Positions 5,952 through 64,000 are shown, numbered from the stretch's first letter. The stretch is 64,000 nucleotides of DNA from Octopus sinensis (GCF_006345805.1 NC_043014.1:41912001-41976000), one strand, 5' to 3'. Notes: generated by a model not told the origin, from the letters alone. Program-made: numbers and translations.

Positions 5952-6182
5952 GATTTCTTAACTACCCACAAGGGGCTAAACACAGAGGGGACAAACAAGG
6001 ACAGACAAAGGGATTAAGTCGATTACATCGACCCCAGTACGCAACTGGTACTTAATTTATCGACCCCGAAAGGATGAAAGGCAAAGTCGACCTCGGCGGA
6101 ATTTGAACTCGGAACGTAACAACAGACGAAATACGGCTACGCATTTCGCCCGGCGTGCTAACGTTTCTACCAGCTCGCCGCC
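5952..6182 (-). mobile_element. SINE-A monomer (tail type 1)
   Basis: Head GGCGGCGAGCTGGTAGAAACGTTAG, B-box GAGTTCAAATTCC, central GCCTTTCATCCTTTCGGGGTCGATAAATTAAGTACCAG. Confidence 0.9.
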
Positions 6183-14588: not shown

Positions 14589-14816
14589 AAGGCGGCGTGT
14601 TGGCAGAAACGTTAGCACGTCGGGCGAAATGCTTAGCCGTATTTCGTCTGTGAGTTGTGAGTTCAAATTCCGCCGAGGTCGACTTTGTCTTTCATCCTTT
14701 CGGGTCGATAAATTAAGTACCAGTTACGCACTGGGGTCGATGTAATCGACTTAATACCTATGTCTGTCCTTGTTTGTCCCTTCTATGTTTAGCCCCTTGT
14801 GGGTAATAAAGAAATA
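14589..14816 (+). mobile_element. SINE-A (tail 1) nested in an antisense SINE-A
   Basis: 18-bp TSD GGTACTTAT(T/C)TAATCGAC at 14571-14588 and 14817-14834. Confidence 0.92.
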
Positions 14817-23377: not shown

Positions 23378-23957
23378 AGCGGCGAGCTGGCAGAATCGTT
23401 AGCACGCCGGGCGAAATGCTTACCGGTATTTCGTCTGCCGTTACGTTCTGAGTTCAAATTCCGCCGAGGTCGACTTTGCCTTTCATCCTTTCGGGGTCGA
23501 TAAATTAAGTGCCAGTTACGCACTGGGGTCGATGTAATCGACTTAATACCTATGTATGTCCTTGTTTGTCCCCTCTATTTTAGCCCCTTGTGGGCAGTAA
23601 AGAATAGGTATTTCGTCTATCGTTTGTTTTGAGTTCAAAATTCCGCCGAGGTCGACTTTGCTTTCATTTTCGGGGTCGATAAATTAAAGTACCAGTACGC
23701 ACTGAGGTCGATATAATCGACTTAATACCAGTCTGTCCGTTCTCCTCTATGTTTTTTTGTGTTTAGCCCCTTGTGAGCAGTGAAGAAAATAGGTATTTGT
23801 CTATCTTTATGTCCTGAGTTCAAATTAGCCGAGGTCGACTTTGCCTTTCATCCTTTCGGGGTCGATAAGTTAAGCACTAGTTACGCACTAGGGTCGATGC
23901 AATCGATAGCCCCTTCCCCCAGATTTCAGGCCTTGTGCCTATAGTAGAAAAAATTAT
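23378..23957 (+). mobile_element. SINE-A concatemer: head + unit (tail 1) + unit (tail 1) + unit (tail 2)
   Basis: Three GAGTTCAAA..GAGGTCGACTTTGC cores joined at ..AATAGGTATTT. Confidence 0.9.
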
Positions 23958-27869: not shown

Positions 27870-28710
27870 TAATTATCGGTCTCAACTTTTGGCATAATGC
27901 TAGCGACCTCGGCGGAGGCGTTAAGTCGAAAGAATAAAAGCGAAGTCGACATCGGTGGTATTTGAACTCAGAACGTAGAGACGGACGAAATGTCGCTAAA
28001 CATTTTTCCCAGTGTGCTTACGATTCTGCCAGCTCTCAGTCCTAACTCGTTGATAATTATCGGTTTCAAATTTTGTCACAAGGCCAAAAATCCCGGGAGA
28101 GGGACTAAGTCGATTACATCGACCACAGTACTCAGCTGGTACTTATTTGTCAACCCTGAAAGAATGAAAGGTAAAAATCGACCTGGGCGGAATTTGAACT
28201 CAGAACGTGTAAACGGCCGAAATGCCGCTAAGCATTTTGCCCGGCGTACTAACGATTCTTATTTCTTTATTGCCCACAAGGGGCTAAACATAGAGGGGAC
28301 AAACAAGGACAGACAAAGGTATTAAGTCGATTACATCGACCCCAGTGCGTAACTGGTACTTAATTTATCGATCCCGAAGGGATGAAAGGCAAAGTCGACC
28401 TCGGCGGAATTTGAACACAGAACGTAAAGACAGACGAAATATCTCTAAGCATTTCGCACGGCAAGCTAACGATACTTGTTTCTTTATTGCCCACAAGGGG
28501 CTAAACATAGAGGGGACAAACAAGGACAGACAAAGGTATTAAGTCGATTGCATCGACCCCGGTGCGTAACTGATACTTAATTTATCGACCTTGAAAGGAT
28601 GAAAGGCAAAGTCGACCTCGGCGGAATTTGAACTCAGAGCGTTAAAACGGCCGAAATGCCGCTAAGCATTTTGCCCAGTGTGCTTACGACTCTCCCAGCT
28701 CGTGGTCTTA
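27870..28710 (-). mobile_element. SINE-A cluster: 3-unit concatemer (28055-28710) plus older copy
   Basis: Tail-1 ends join directly into head sequence (AGAATCGTTAG / AGTATCGTTAG). Confidence 0.88.
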
Positions 28711-37879: not shown

Positions 37880-38315
37880 TGAGTATTTCGAAGACAGACG
37901 AAATAGAGCTAAGCATTTTGTCCGGCGTGCTAACGTTTCTTATTTCTTTATTGCCGACAGGGGTTAAACAAAGAGGAGAGGGATGAAGTCGATTACATCG
38001 ACCCCAGTGAGTAACAGGTACTCAATTTATCGACTCTTAAAGAATGAAATGCAAAGTCGACCTCAGCGGAATTTGAACTCAGAACGTAACGGCAGACGAA
38101 ATACCTATTTCTTTACTACCCACAAGGGGCTAAATACAGAAAGGACAAACAAGGACAGACAAACGGATTAAGTCAATTATATCGACCCCAGTGCGTAACT
38201 GGTACTTATTTAATCGACCGCGAAAGGATGAAAGGCAAAGTCGACCTCGGCGGAATTTGAACTCAGAACGTAACGGCAGACGAAATACAGCTACACATTT
38301 CGCCTCGCCGCCCTC
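37880..38315 (-). mobile_element. SINE-A concatemer
   Basis: Junctions AAAGAAATAGGTATTTCG and AAAGAAATAAGAAACGTTAG. Confidence 0.88.
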
Positions 38316-42029: not shown

Positions 42030-42350
42030 ATTCTTTTTTACTCTATGCACAGGGCCCGAAATTTTGGAGGAGGAGGCCAGTCGATCAGATCAACCCCAGT
42101 ATGCAACTGTTGCTTAATTTATCGACCCGAAAGGATGAAAGACAAAGTGGAGCTGGGCGGAATTTGAACTCAGACCCTAAAAACAGACGAAATACCAGAC
42201 GAAATTTGAAGTTCGGCAAAGGTGACCTAAAAAATAAGCATGACGTATAGAAAAAATAAGTACTGGGGTCGATTCTTTCGACTACAATTCCTTTAAGGCA
42301 GTGGCCCAGCAAGGCTTCAGTCTAATGACTGAAACAAGTTGAAGATAAAA
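42030..42350. mobile_element. SINE-A (-) remnant joined to SINE-B 3' fragment (+)
   Basis: Homology to both families. Confidence 0.72.
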
Positions 42351-46813: not shown

Positions 46814-47220
46814 TTGTTTCTTTACTACCCACAAGGGGCTAAACACAGAGGGAACAAACAAGGACAGACAAACGGATTAGGCCGACTTCATCGACCCCAG
46901 TACGTAACTGGTACTTAATTTATCGACCCCGAAAGGATGAAAGGCAAAGTCGACCTCGGCGGAATTTGAACTCAGAACGTAGCGGCAGACGAAATACCTA
47001 TTTCTTTACTACCCACAAGGGGCTAAACACGGAGAGGACAAACAAGGACCGACAAACGGATTAAGTCGATTACATAGACCCCAGTGCGTAACTGGTACTT
47101 AATTTATCGACCCCGAAAGGATGAAAGGCAAAGTCGACCTAGGCGGAATTTGAACTCAGAACGTAGCGGCAGACGAAATACCGGTATACATTTCGCCCGG
47201 TGTGCTAACGATTCTGCCAA
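46814..47220 (-). mobile_element. SINE-A dimer (head + 2 units)
   Basis: Junction AAAGAAATAGGTATTTCG near 47000. Confidence 0.9.
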
Positions 47221-48356
47221 GTACACAACCGAACGAAATCGCCAGTATCTGAAATAGAGAATATCCTCTCTTGCATCGGATAGATAAATTCCTTTTAAAT
47301 TCTCTTGGTGTATTCGGAACAAGAAATGTTTTCAAGCAACAAGGCTGCTAACCATACACAAACTCATAACTTAGGGAAACAAAGCACATGTTCAGCAATT
47401 TGTACATGGAAAAGCAGTAAATGATCTTCTTTGTATCACCTGGAGAGATTCCGAAATCAATGCAAGTAGATATGTATGTTACTACGTCAATATCAAAACA
47501 GTTGCAAGCGAAAACGCTTTAGTAATGAAATAGCTACAGTAAACCAAGTGTACTCACTTACAGTATGTCAGAATAAAAGTATTAATAGATCTGCTTTGAT
47601 TGTTCCACCAACTGGTGTTTGTACATGCTTTTGAATGGAGAGCGCCTCGAGAGGGATTTTTTACTGAAAAATATACTCTTGAAGAAACTACTTAACATAA
47701 AAAATATAATAGCTTTGTGCACATGCAAGAACACGATAACAATTGGAAATGAAACCGATGTAGTTTTAAACATTTAAAGCGAAATTTCATATCTAAAGAT
47801 GTGGTTAATACATTGAAATACTGTAATTTTATTTTGATAAAGCAACCTCTTTTAACTGATTTCTAACATTCGTTTCGCAACAAACTTATTGCATATAATA
47901 TCTATATAAAAGGATTCCAAGTGTTACGATGACGTTTCAGGCCAATACTACTAAACCAGATGCTCTATGGGTGATATTCCAAACGTGATAGTGGCACAGA
48001 CGAAATATATACTTTTAAAATGAGTTGGGTATTTTATTTATATCATATTATTAAAAAAGAAGCTGATCTCCGGCGGTCTGTCCGTAACGACATTTATATA
48101 TAGAGAAAAGAATGGGAAGAATCATAAGGAAGAATCAGAAGAGGAAGAATCAAAAGTTGCTGAGAGAGAAATACAGTGTGAGAGAGAGAGAGAGAGAGGA
48201 GCGAGAGCGAGAGCGTGTGTGTGTATGTGTGTGTGTATCTAAAAGATAGATAGGTAGTGTTGTCGCCATAGTAACTAACAACTTTTGATTTAAAAAGGTG
48301 GGTATTTCGTGTGCAAATCTGTCAACACAAAGTAACACAAGCTTTAAAAAATACGA

Positions 48357-49945: not shown

Positions 49946-50653
49946 ACGGTTAATTTTTTATTTATTTCTCCTTTGTGTTTACACCCCCCCCGCAACCGCC
50001 ACCCTAAATTTGCTCCACGTCTGCAGAATGGTTAATATCCTAAATAATGTAAGCACTATGATTGCCAGCACTAAATAAAAACTGTTACGACCGTACTTCA
50101 CGGGTCAATGAGAGATTTAGGCACCCAATGCGAAAAACCAGCAATGACACGAACAATCAGCATTATTATTTCGAAATATTGTCACGTGTTCTAAGCACGT
50201 AGATCACGTGCAAATCGGAGCATGCTCCTTTTATTCCTCATCGATTTACGCGCGTGCAAAACGACTGAACAAATATTGGCTGTTATATCGTTTCTATTTT
50301 GTTTCTAATAAAATAGATGTTGTCGCCATTTGCAAAATGTCGCCATTTGTAAAATGGCGAGATGGCTCATTAAGAGGAGCAGGCAGTAAAACATTTACTC
50401 TTGTTATCACCTACATAATGCCACGCAAACACAGACACACGTACACATAAAAGGCACATAGAATTCATAAACACATATACATAATTATAGACACGCGATA
50501 CAGTCACACACGCTGTGTATGGGAAGACTTCGTAGAGTCACTTAAACACTTCCTTTCATGACTTTAATCTCATTCACTTGCTCAGAGCTTATTGGCGTAT
50601 TATTGTTAAAATGACTGACGAAATCATTGTATTCATAGAAGGCGATGCGTCGG

Positions 50654-50925
50654 ACGAGCTGGCAGAAACGTTAGCACACCGGGCGAAATGCGTAGCCGTA
50701 TTTCGTCTGCCGCTACGTTCTGAGTTCAAATTCCGCCGAGGTCGACTTTGCCTTTCATCCTTTCGGGGTCGATAAATTAAGTACAAGTTACGCACTGGGG
50801 TCGATATAATCGACTTAATCCATTTGTGTGTCCATGTTTGTCCTCTCTGTGTTTAGCCCCTTGTGGGTAGTAAAGAAATAGGTATTTCGCCTGCCGCTAC
50901 GTTCTGAGTTCGAATTCCGCCGAGG
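50654..50925 (+). mobile_element. SINE-A plus start of a second unit
   Basis: Junction TAAAGAAATAGGTATTTCG at ~50880. Confidence 0.9.
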
Positions 50926-56395: not shown

Positions 56396-56572
56396 AGAAC
56401 AAAAGAATAAATATATAACAAATTTAAATATTTGGATGTATATGTATGTTTACATATATTTATATATATTTGTACGTATGTATATATGTATGCATGTATC
56501 TATCTATCTATTTATTATTCTATCAATCTTTCTGCCAATCTATCTATCTTCTTATCTATCTATCTATCTATC

Positions 56573-56614
<42 letters not shown>

Positions 56615-56629
56615 AATAATGTCACATGT

Positions 56630-56933
56630 GTTAACATGTGACATTATTGACCGAGGTTACCGTGGTCCTTTCCGTGGGCTTTTCTTTCCACGGGTAAACC
56701 TTATCTGCTTTACCCTTTACACTTTACATCATGACATTTCTGTGATACACGATCCCTACTGATCGTTTTCTTTTCTCTCTCTTTTTTTACGATCCTTTTT
56801 GATTAAAAACCTACCACCCTTGTTATTTTTTATTTGTCTTTTTCTTTTTCTTTTCTTTTCTCTCCAAGAAGAAAAGCTCTACTTTGTAATTTGTCCCCTC
56901 TGTGTTCAGCCCTGTGTGGCTAATAAAGAAACA

Positions 56934-56935
<2 letters not shown>
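56630..56935 (+). mobile_element. 5'-truncated LINE 3' UTR inserted in (TATC)n
   Basis: Homologous to 63669-64000; flanked on both sides by (TATC)n. Confidence 0.8.
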
Positions 56936-57005
<70 letters not shown>

Positions 57006-61922: not shown

Positions 61923-63080
61923 ATAGGTGCAGGCGTGGCTTATAGGCGCAGGGGTGGTTTATAGGCGCAGCCATGGCTACAGGTGCAGGCGTAGTTGTGT
62001 GGTAAGACGCTTGCTGCCCAACCACATGGCTCCGGGTTCAGTCCCACTGCATGAAATACCTATTTCTTTACTACCCACAAGGAGCTAAACACAGAGAGGA
62101 CAAACAAGGACAGACAAAGGGATTAAGTCGATTATATCGTACCCCAGTGCGTAACTGGTACTTAATTTATCGACCCCGAAAGGATGAAAGGCAAAGTCGA
62201 CCTCGGCGGAATTCGAACTCAGAACATAACGGCAGACGAAATACCTATTTCTTTATTACCCACAAGGGGCTAAACACAGAGAGGACGAACAAGGACAGAC
62301 AAAGGGATTAAGTCGATTATATCGACCCCAGTGCGTAACTGGTACTTAATTTATCGACCCCGAAAGGATGAAAGGCAAAGTCGACTTCGGCGGAATTCGA
62401 ACTCAGAACATAACGGCAGACGAAATACCTATTTCTTTATTACCCACAAGGGGCTAAACACAGAGAGGACAAACAAGGACAGACAGACGGATTAAGTCGA
62501 TTATATCGACCCCAGTGCGTAACTGGTACTTAATTTATCGACCCCGAAAGGATGAAATGCACAGTCGACCTCGGCGGAATTTGAACTCAGAACATAACGG
62601 CAGACGAAATACCTATTTCTTTATTACCCACAAGGGGCTAAACACAGAGAGGACAAACAAGGACAGACAAACAGATTAAGTCGATGATATCGACCCCAGT
62701 GCGTAACTGGTACTTAATTTATCGACCCCGAAAGGATGAAAGGCAAAGTCGACCTCGGCGGAATTTGAACTCAGAACATAACGGCAGACGAAATACCGCA
62801 AAGCATTTCGTCCGGCGTGCTAACGTTTCTGCCAGCTCGCCACTACATGAAATACCTTGGGCAAGTGTCTTCTACTAAAGCCTCGAGCAGACCAAAGCCT
62901 TGAGAGTAGATTTCGTGAGCGGAAACTGAAAGAAGCCCGCCGACACAAGTGACCGTTAGAATAAGCACCAGGTTTTAAAAACCTAAGTACTGGGTCGATA
63001 CATTAGACTAAAATTTCTCCAAAGCGATGCCCTAGTATGGTCACATTCTGATGACTGAAATATATGAAAGATAAAAGATA
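61923..63080 (+). mobile_element. SINE-B with reiterated 5' end, split by a SINE-A array
   Basis: Head to 62060; resumes TTGGGCAAGTGTCTTC at 62857. Confidence 0.88.
62061..62841 (-). mobile_element. SINE-A tetramer (one head + four ~184-bp units)
   Basis: Units start at 62061, 62246, 62430 and 62614; 15-bp TSD ACT(G/A)CATGAAATACC. Confidence 0.93.
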
Positions 63081-63465: not shown

Positions 63466-64000
63466 CTCTGATCAATCTCTCATCAACTTCTTCAAGTATC
63501 ACTTGAAAAGGAAAGTGAGAGTAGAGAGGCAATTTTTGTCTAGTGAATGTTTTAAAAAAAGATGGGTGAATGTAGCAAGGATGGCACGTATGAATGACGA
63601 AGCCACCTTGACTATGATCCTATGAACCGTAACAATTAATTAGTTGCTTATTTGTAGAAAAAAATATAACATGAGACTTCATTGACCGAGGTTACTGTGG
63701 TCATTTCCGTAGGCTTTTCTTTCCACGGGTAAACCTCACCTGTCTTCCCATTTACACTTTATATTGACATTTCTGTGATAACGATTCCTATTGATCGATT
63801 TTTTCGTTTTCGTTTTCTTTTTTCTTTTTATTTTATCTTATTTTATTATATTTTTTTTCTTTGCTTTCCTCTTTCTTTCCATTTACGATCCCTTTTGATC
63901 GGAAACCAACCCATGTTATTTTTTTATCCCCAAAAAGAAAAGCTCTACCTTATAATTTGTCCCATCTGTGTGCATCCCTGTGTGGCTAATAAAGAAACAT
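63466..64000 (+). mobile_element. L1/Tx1-like LINE 3' end (ORF2 C-terminus plus 3' UTR)
   Basis: SLINFFKYHLKRKVRVERQFL...FKKRW resembles the Tx1/L1 ORF2 terminus; stop at 63625; UTR ends AATAAAGAAACAT; second copy at 56630. Confidence 0.6.

Follow-up and report, generated by a model that had tools for sequence, protein, structure and literature searches.

We analyzed a stretch of 64,000 nt from Octopus sinensis (GCF_006345805.1 NC_043014.1:41912001-41976000), referred to below as the window, within which all positions are counted. The window contains copies of a short, non-coding, highly repeated element of about 230 bp, a short interspersed element (SINE) that we call SINE-A, and two fragments of a long interspersed element (LINE), both of which are 3' ends. 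An earlier note on this DNA had claimed that the tail of SINE-A matches the 3' end of an L1/Tx1-like LINE. Indeed, a sequence check placed the SINE-A tail at 50837-50880 and the LINE-type tail at 56890-56933, with a second instance at 63956-63999, and 37 of 44 nucleotides are identical between the first two in an ungapped comparison. The LINE comprises an old subfamily, LINE-a, to which the window copies belong, and a young subfamily, LINE-b. The LINE features of the window are:

56499-56614, plus strand: (TCTA)n-type microsatellite, the 5' flank of copy A (limits approximate)
56615-56648, plus strand: inverted duplication spanning the 5' junction of copy A, with arms at 56615-56628 and 56635-56648; other copies read straight through
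56633-56933, plus strand: LINE-a copy A, 5'-truncated, pure 3' untranslated region (UTR) of about 301 bp, tail at 56890-56933; copies in the genome extend 5' into a second open reading frame (ORF2) with apurinic endonuclease-like (APE), reverse transcriptase (RT) and zf-RVT domains
56934-57004, plus strand: (TATC)n microsatellite, immediately following the end of the LINE, ...AAAGAAACA
63466-63999, plus strand: LINE-a copy B, the last approximately 56 ORF2 codons, a stop near 63631-63633, then the 3' UTR; tail at 63956-63999

The 14-nt arms repeat the first bases of the LINE itself in inverted orientation and resemble a snap-back or twin-priming footprint. The C-terminal reading of copy B was compared by eye with the protein P0001.

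SINE-A units occur alone or joined to one another. The joins lie at GGTATTTCG, a sequence that SINE-A itself contains about 58 nt after its start (site A), or at AGAAxCGTTAGC in the head (site B), and result in the periods of 184 and 217 bp among the units of the window. The SINE-A features, including target-site duplications (TSDs), are:

5952-6181, minus strand: solo SINE-A with a slightly diverged tail end (...TTAAGAAATC)
14590-14816, plus strand: solo SINE-A with an 18-bp TSD beginning GGTAC
28260-28698, minus strand: two SINE-A copies, tail joined to site B of the head, 217-bp period, GGGCAA tail variant (5' limit approximate)
37941-38310, minus strand: two SINE-A units at 165-bp spacing, the 3' unit with a shortened tail variant (5' limit approximate)
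46815-47225, minus strand: SINE-A head and two units, 184-bp period (5' limit approximate)
50641-50880, plus strand: full SINE-A copy with tail 1 at 50837-50880
50881-50925, plus strand: partial SINE-A unit that starts at site A and is joined directly to the preceding tail
62061-62838, minus strand: SINE-A array consisting of one head and four 184-bp units, in which every tail adjoins site A of the unit after it
62839-62855 (5' copy) and 62044-62060 (3' copy), minus strand: TSD of the array, 17 bp, GGTATTTCATGYAGTGG, read directly

The array, at 62044-62855 with its flanks, has just this one TSD pair and is inserted within another SINE-like repeat. The SINE-A head contains a B-box-like motif (GAGTTCAAATTCC) and an A-box-like motif (TGGCAGAA), read by eye against the consensus boxes; for tRNAs in the window, ARAGORN and Rfam each returned 0 matches.

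The likeness between SINE-A and the LINE is confined to the final 45-50 nt. A degenerate 23-nt pattern for the first half of the tail matched 14 times in the window (at most three mismatches), compared to 0 matches in 100 shuffles, and an 18-nt pattern for the second half matched 15 times, compared to a shuffle mean of 0.04. These controls rule out a chance likeness of the tails, and every match in the window is a SINE-A copy or one of the two LINE copies. The likeness also persists across copies: in a sample of 452,214 bases, which comprises the window and the fetched loci, it was seen in 71 different SINE tails and 56 different LINE tails, and the exact tail counts for the whole genome are at least 76,253 of the SINE type and at least 1,095 of the LINE type. 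Four of the 156 tail matches in this sample belong neither to the SINE nor to LINE-a/b, and none of the four adjoins an ORF. The shared tail includes AATAAA, the canonical polyadenylation signal, shortly before the LINE end (56916-56925 and 63982-63991); nevertheless, LINE-a copies have (TATC)n rather than poly(A) at their ends.

The earlier note had read the 300-bp repeat of the window as the end of a LINE with an L1/Tx1-type RT. A search with this repeat yielded 44 genome matches from 2,846 first-look candidates. The copies found first all began at query base 1, as a separate SINE might, yet their flanks are homologous further upstream, and this candidate was rejected. The homology extends 5' of the window copy and breaks off at different points in different copies, which fits 5'-truncated LINE copies. 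An upstream walk reached L065 and L067, two nearly full-length copies with 97.8% identity across 5,475 bp, and the element measures about 6.2 kb (about L065:2248 to 8457). Pfam identified Exo_endo_phos (APE), RVT_1 and zf-RVT in pieces of the LINE-b ORF2, and a weak zinc knuckle (18.5-19 bits, under the cut-off of 20.8 bits) in a piece of the upstream ORF; between LINE-b copies, the ORF region is 95-98% identical. The 300-bp repeat is the 3' UTR of this 6.2-kb element with APE, RT and zf-RVT. At one further locus, L020 (G000 C26:24905159-24906366), four partial copies of the LINE-a 3' UTR lie in tandem with a period of about 300 bp.

The ORF2 proteins of this LINE and of LINE-c, a sister family described below, have the architecture of the L1 group, that is, an N-terminal APE, an RT and a C-terminal zf-RVT. 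The best solved relative of LINE-b ORF2 is human L1 ORF2p (E 1.2e-54, residues 10-864), R2 proteins trail at 8e-21 or weaker, and the matches in the PDB included L1 and R2 but no CR1, L2 or RTE. Architecture and best solved relative both point to the L1 group, as the earlier note had supposed. The closest named protein, from the octopod Argonauta hians, shows 67% identity over half of the query; clade names obtained from best hits, cluster names and the ESM Atlas were not informative. An assignment to Tx1 within the L1 group is indirectly supported by target specificity, which is a frequent although not a defining trait of Tx1 and is seen here as insertion at (TATC)n for LINE-a/b, at (ATT)n for LINE-c and at site A for LINE-d, as well as by published surveys of molluscs and octopuses. 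In these surveys, Tx1 is the named clade of the L1 superfamily in molluscs, the superfamily having a mean length of 5,851 bp (PMC10294476), and L1-Tx1 elements are among the recently active LINEs of octopuses (PMC13282606) and are listed in an octopus annotation (PMC8967140). Taken together, these comparisons support, at the level of the LINE clade, a SINE whose putative tail partner is of the L1/Tx1 type.

The insertion sites of LINE-a/b are highly specific. All 56 distinct 3' ends stop at ...AAAGAAACA, and 53 of the 55 flanks of readable length begin with TAT. At least two tandem TATC units are present in 34 of the 56 3' flanks, and in the reverse orientation in none of them; the background is about 0.5-0.8% of the 30-nt windows within the 64,000 nt. 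The 5' junctions were read by eye for 31 copies, after two further rows with mis-set boundaries had been dropped; one row lacked a tail. Here, (TATC)n precedes 17 of the 31 copies and, in 16 of these 17, also follows the 3' end, whereas among the 12 copies without a repeat at the 5' flank just one has it at the 3' flank. One additional copy is preceded by (TCTG)n and one by the repeat in reverse orientation. Two full-length copies both sit within (CTAT)n, and a long (TCTA)n follows copy B just past the edge of the window. LINE-a/b therefore resides, in a fixed orientation, inside one type of microsatellite, (TATC)n.

The junctions of SINE-A are different. Eight- to 19-bp TSDs were found for 20 of 27 solo full-length copies, a length that fits the typical range of L1-group endonucleases. 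They begin directly after ...AAATA with RRTAT, mostly GGTAT, TATAT, AGTAT or GATAT. A census of at least 76,448 exact SINE-A tail ends in the genome showed that the next nucleotides are GGTAT in 40,587 cases (53.1%) and GGTATTTCG, that is, site A of a further SINE-A unit, in 22,716 cases (29.7%); the background frequency of GGTAT is 0.00084 per position. The junction of the window LINE, TATCTATC, follows in just 38 cases (0.05%), which is about background (0.00016-0.00062 per position). Likewise, (TATC)n was found in none of the 71 sampled SINE flanks; 35 of these 71 tails enter SINE-internal sequence, 30 of them at site A and the others at site B. The earlier note had pointed out that Tx1 endonucleases are often target-selective, and had suggested that the selectivity of the partner LINE could explain the biased junctions of SINE-A. 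The window LINE is indeed selective for (TATC)n, but SINE-A does not share this preference, and the near-absence of TATCTATC after SINE tails means that the target choice of the window LINE does not account for the bias. The bias matches another family, LINE-d, instead.

At least two sister families of LINE-a/b carry the same tail type. LINE-c was found with the C-terminal 169 residues of P0001 (150 matches scored of 31,135 candidates). It has an intact ORF2 of 1,149 amino acids with APE, RVT_1 and zf-RVT (L133:524-3973, minus strand), which is 70% identical to the ORF2 of LINE-b (707 of 1,016 residues). In this copy (G000 C14 near 19.95 Mb) the ORF1 region is broken. In 29 of 30 LINE-c copies, the tail closes with ...GTGGCCAATAAA... 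/ ...GTCAGCCCTTGTGGCCAATAAA... and (ATT)n comes next. LINE-c copies are often arranged head to tail with a spacing of about 5.8 kb, as seen at several loci, and (ATT)n terminates each of them.

LINE-d came to light with a pattern that combined the LINE-type loop of the tail with site A. The pattern had 38 matches, and the 30 that were fetched comprise 28 SINE variants, one truncated SINE and one LINE-d copy (L182). ORF2 pieces of LINE-d, which span residues 1-1144, are 43-67% identical to LINE-c at the amino acid level and carry RVT_1 and zf-RVT (Pfam), and its tail reads ...TTTGTCCATTTCTGTGTTTGGCCCCCTGTGGGCAATAAAGAAATT; the window contains no LINE-d body. All 30 sampled 3' ends of LINE-d adjoin the site-A motif GGTATTTCG, and 29 of them run on into the SINE-A body. 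The junctions of SINE-A and LINE-a/b differ ((TATC)n in 34 of 56 LINE flanks versus 0 of 71 SINE flanks), and those of SINE-A and LINE-d agree. Both the tail and the junction are common to SINE-A and LINE-d, and the junction lies within the SINE itself.

A predicted stem of 3-4 G/C base pairs, capped by a CYUGU-type loop and located shortly ahead of UAAAGAAA, is common to all families. The predominant forms in the motif count, given as stem, loop and stem, are:

SINE tail 1: GCCC-CUUGU-GGGU, 51 of 71
LINE-a/b: AGCC-CUGUGU-GGCU, 31 of 56
LINE-c: GCC-CUUGU-GGC, 28 of 29
LINE-d: GCCC-CCUGU-GGGC, 12 of 30
SINE tail 2: stem flipped, GGGC-CUUGU-GCCU

All four stem positions are paired in 60 of the 71 SINE tails, 39 of the 56 LINE-a/b tails and 20 of the 30 LINE-d tails. 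The folding of the shared tail that the earlier note had called for gave z-scores of 0.17 and 1.12 for single sequences, and RNAalifold found no consensus structure for 13 tails. The motif count by family lends some support to the predicted hairpin, but as neither thermodynamic nor consensus folding does so, it is a lead rather than a result.

Two variants of the SINE tail were seen. Tail 2 (...GGGCCTTGTGCCTAGAGTAGAAAAGAATA) occurs on the same SINE body downstream of LINE-d tails, among others at L195, L194, L204 and L209, and in the window at 23928-23954 and 42031-42057; its stem mirrors that of tail 1 around the same CUUGU loop, and it is often joined to site B of another SINE. A SINE-A subfamily (L163-L191, for example G000 C5:22877925 and C7:116201824) has the LINE-like loop end GGCTAATAAAG in place of GGGTAGTAAAG, with TTAATACCTATG upstream, and some of its copies carry a duplicated GAAATAGAAATA ahead of site A.

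The shared tails and junctions suggest that SINE-A may be reverse-transcribed in trans by an ORF2 protein of the tail-sharing L1/Tx1-type clade, the helper being LINE-d or a younger relative; we put the chances of this reading at about even. The ORF2 protein would recognize the predicted small hairpin in the SINE-A tail, and insertion at site A, or template switching there, would build the 184-bp tandem units. The (TATC)n-specific LINE-a/b of the window is then probably a cousin of the real helper. Tail identity does not allow the families to be ranked (37/44 for LINE-a, about 36-38/45 for LINE-d), and LINE-d is favored by its junction, since all 30 of its ends lie at site A, whereas the junctions of LINE-a/b and SINE-A differ. 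As to the direction of borrowing, we infer that the tail passed from the LINE lineage to SINE-A, since it terminates LINE families whose ORF2 proteins are 30-50% apart, whereas SINE-A copies differ by about 9% in their DNA. The median pairwise identities are 0.91 for SINE-A copies found incidentally and 0.90 for the LINE-a UTR; the UTR values are rough, since the T-rich part aligns badly.

Several observations weigh against LINE-d and its relatives as the helper. By hand alignment, the LINE-d tail is no closer to SINE-A than that of LINE-a. LINE-d is rare, with 341 first-look candidates and 10 exact matches to a 26-nt tail, and it looks old: its copies are 84-92% alike, and four long copies contain no ORF of more than 372 amino acids. 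Some SINE-A copies, on the other hand, are 95-96% alike, so a younger helper may exist, and none was found. The hairpin is tiny, the placement of LINE-a, LINE-b, LINE-c and LINE-d in the Tx1 clade is putative, and a tRNA origin of the SINE-A head would be read from box-like motifs recognized by eye. Finally, about 11 5'-truncated LINE-d copies are flanked at their 5' side by ordinary DNA, without a SINE head.

The flanks of LINE-d bear on a further possibility, namely that the joins between a tail and GGTATTTCG are not integration sites. In this case, the RT would copy SINE RNA up to about nucleotide 58 and then switch to another 3' tail, that of a second SINE or of a LINE-d RNA, so that chains would form in one event; in a variant, LINE-d would carry the downstream SINE unit along by read-through (3' transduction). 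The enzyme would still belong to the same LINE clade. This fits the truncated LINE-d copies with ordinary DNA at the 5' flank, the presence of a SINE unit after every one of the 30 LINE-d ends sampled, and the window array, in which the units after the first lack heads and a single 17-bp TSD encloses all of them. However, successive insertions resolved by homology also yield headless units within one outer TSD. In addition, the TSDs of solo SINE-A copies begin with GGTAT in non-SINE DNA, which makes GGTAT a true target preference, and the SINE units downstream of LINE-d stem from different subfamilies (tail 1 or tail 2). The 5' ends of full-length LINE-d copies also speak for insertion. The sequence GGTATTTCGTC... 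precedes all three that were fetched independently (L223, L224, L225); another seven, for a total of ten, were found by a pattern that includes the site motif. Upstream of the ten lies a SINE head in four cases and the tail-1 end of a SINE in six, as expected from a 14-bp duplication of site A plus later hits at the same site. In the four cases, the SINE head is intact and a copy of site A lies on either side of LINE-d, which is the outcome expected of an insertion with a 14-bp TSD. Overall, we regard this reading of the joins as improbable.

A simple nested insertion of LINE-d was also considered and was rejected: a SINE head was present at the 5' flank in 0 of 24 junction rows of truncated copies, and 29 of 30 loci had no head motif within about 1.8 kb upstream. 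Plain site-specific insertion is not predicted to give such headless 5' flanks. As the truncated copies have ordinary DNA on their 5' side, these flanks suggest that LINE-d often moves with the downstream SINE unit or that the RT switches templates at site A.

A different candidate for the helper is LINE-a/b itself or LINE-c with its intact ORF2. The landing site would then be determined by pairing of the nicked DNA with the RNA beyond the tail, which is (UAUC)n in the LINE RNA and GGUAU... in a read-through SINE RNA, so that one enzyme would produce different junctions. The apparent vitality of these families favors this explanation: LINE-b is young, as judged by its nearly identical ORF regions, and the ORF2 of LINE-c is intact, whereas LINE-d looks dead. 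SINE-A has no run of four Ts, so that RNA polymerase III transcripts would run on into the flank. Moreover, LINE-a and SINE-A both prefer sites that contain TAT; the TAT that begins 53 of the 55 LINE-a 3' flanks also occurs outside microsatellites (TATAT, TATTA and similar), SINE-A TSDs have TAT at positions 3-5 in 23-28 of 36 cases, and some SINE-A copies are flanked on both sides by (TATC)n (for example, L134, L136, L137, L143 and L145). The census points the other way, with TATCTATC after SINE tails at about background and (TATC)n in none of the sampled SINE flanks. In clear cases GGTAT lies inside the TSD and hence belongs to the target. Furthermore, a pattern that joins the LINE-a pre-tail to the SINE-type loop had 0 matches in the genome, compared to 1,095 for the LINE's own pattern. 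We therefore consider LINE-a/b or LINE-c rather doubtful as the helper, although a stronger contender than template switching.

Two similar pattern searches returned no further LINE. The LINE-c pre-tail combined with the SINE tail matched once, in a mutated SINE, and the LINE-type loop combined with site B matched 16 times, in 15 SINE variants and at L156. The latter (G000 C19 near 29.68 Mb) is a small unclassified element that ends ...GAGGCCTTTGTGGCCAATAAAGAGAGC and is joined to site B of a SINE head; the 1.5 kb upstream of it show no similarity to ORF2.

It is also conceivable that SINE-A was moved by a LINE of another clade, such as RTE, CR1 or Dong/R4, and that its Tx1-like tail is a relic or a chance chimera. 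RTE, Dong-R4 and CR1 elements are recently active in octopus repeat surveys, as far as the available text shows (PMC13282606), and the hairpin is thermodynamically weak. Nevertheless, the tail is located at the very 3' end of at least 76,000 copies and is well kept, LINE-d uses the same junction, and no other LINE with this tail was present in the 452-kb sample. The TSD lengths, too, fit the typical range of L1-group endonucleases. A helper from another clade thus appears highly improbable.

If LINE-d or a close relative is the helper, SINE-A would bear the landing site of its own LINE lineage, GGTATTTCG, about 58 nt into its head, and the two would form a self-homing LINE/SINE partnership of the animal L1 group. 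We advance this idea tentatively, at somewhat less than even probability. SINE-A would then not only use the enzymes of the LINE, it would also supply tens of thousands of fresh targets to both LINE and SINE, and self-homing would give rise to LINE-SINE concatenates and to chains in which 184-bp units follow one another head to tail. The matter bears on the question of why SINEs form a large share of octopus genomes, as 30% of the SINE-A tail ends adjoin another unit. One genome combines an intact LINE-c ORF2, a high-copy SINE whose tails number at least 76,000, and four sister LINE families that have a single tail type and, between them, three different landing sites. This combination makes it possible to test how an L1-group enzyme reads a specific 3' hairpin, and whether it is the endonuclease or pairing with the RNA end that selects the landing site.

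SINE/LINE pairs that share a tail are a textbook system in which the L1 group is the exception. In stringent pairs such as UnaSINE1/UnaL2 the two elements have a common 3' tail, and most of the partner LINEs belong to CR1, L2 or RTE, according to the accessible part of a 2013 survey (PMC3747384). The octopus pair resembles these systems in several respects: the last approximately 45 nt of SINE-A copy the LINE 3' end, a small predicted stem-loop precedes the end, a short tandem repeat terminates the LINE, and the SINE far outnumbers the LINE (at least 76,253 versus at least 1,095 exact tails). In contrast to them, the partner of SINE-A belongs to the L1 group, SINE-A lacks the terminal repeat of the LINE, and the tail type is common to several sister LINEs with different landing sites.

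The earlier note had called an L1-type partner uncommon, and the literature agrees. The 2013 survey and a related paper name just three SINEs with L1-clade tails, two of them from plants (maize and sorghum) and one from the alga Chlamydomonas: ZmSINE2/3 and sorghum SINEs with LINE1-1_ZM, and SINEX-3_CR with L1-1_CR (PMC3747384, PMC3472496). As in those pairs, so far as they are described there, an L1-clade lineage keeps a 3' end with a hairpin, here a predicted one, in common with SINEs. The plant and algal pairs are reported there to show compensatory changes in the stem, and the octopus SINE tail 2 has a flipped stem. The plant and algal elements end in poly(A), whereas the octopus elements end in (TATC)n, (ATT)n or at a site inside the SINE, and the host is an animal. 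We found no description in the literature of an octopus SINE with a Tx1-type LINE tail, although Repbase, Dfam or supplements may already contain the families.

The only link between Tx1 and a SINE that we found in print, in the accessible text of Kojima 2015, is based on shared targets and not on tails: Tx1-Mar LINEs are proposed there to move crocodilian SINEU elements, given that the two have a landing site in common (PMC4494074). The same text describes LINEs of the Tx1 clade that insert into microsatellites, namely Kibi in (TC)n, Koshi in (TTC)n and crocodilian families in (TTCC)n or (TTTC)n (PMC4494074). LINE-a/b resembles these families, as portrayed there, in being inserted orientation-specifically into one microsatellite with the repeat on both sides; it differs in the repeats, which are (TATC)n and, for LINE-c, (ATT)n, in the mollusc host, and in a clade membership that is putative. 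SINEU, in turn, is described as having a poly(A) tail, no 3' terminus in common with any LINE, and a Mariner transposon as its target. The likeness to SINEU/Tx1-Mar is that a target-selective, putatively Tx1-type LINE and a SINE use one landing site, here LINE-d and SINE-A at GGTATTTCG; unlike SINEU as portrayed in that text, SINE-A has a tail in common with the LINE and carries the landing site in its own head region.

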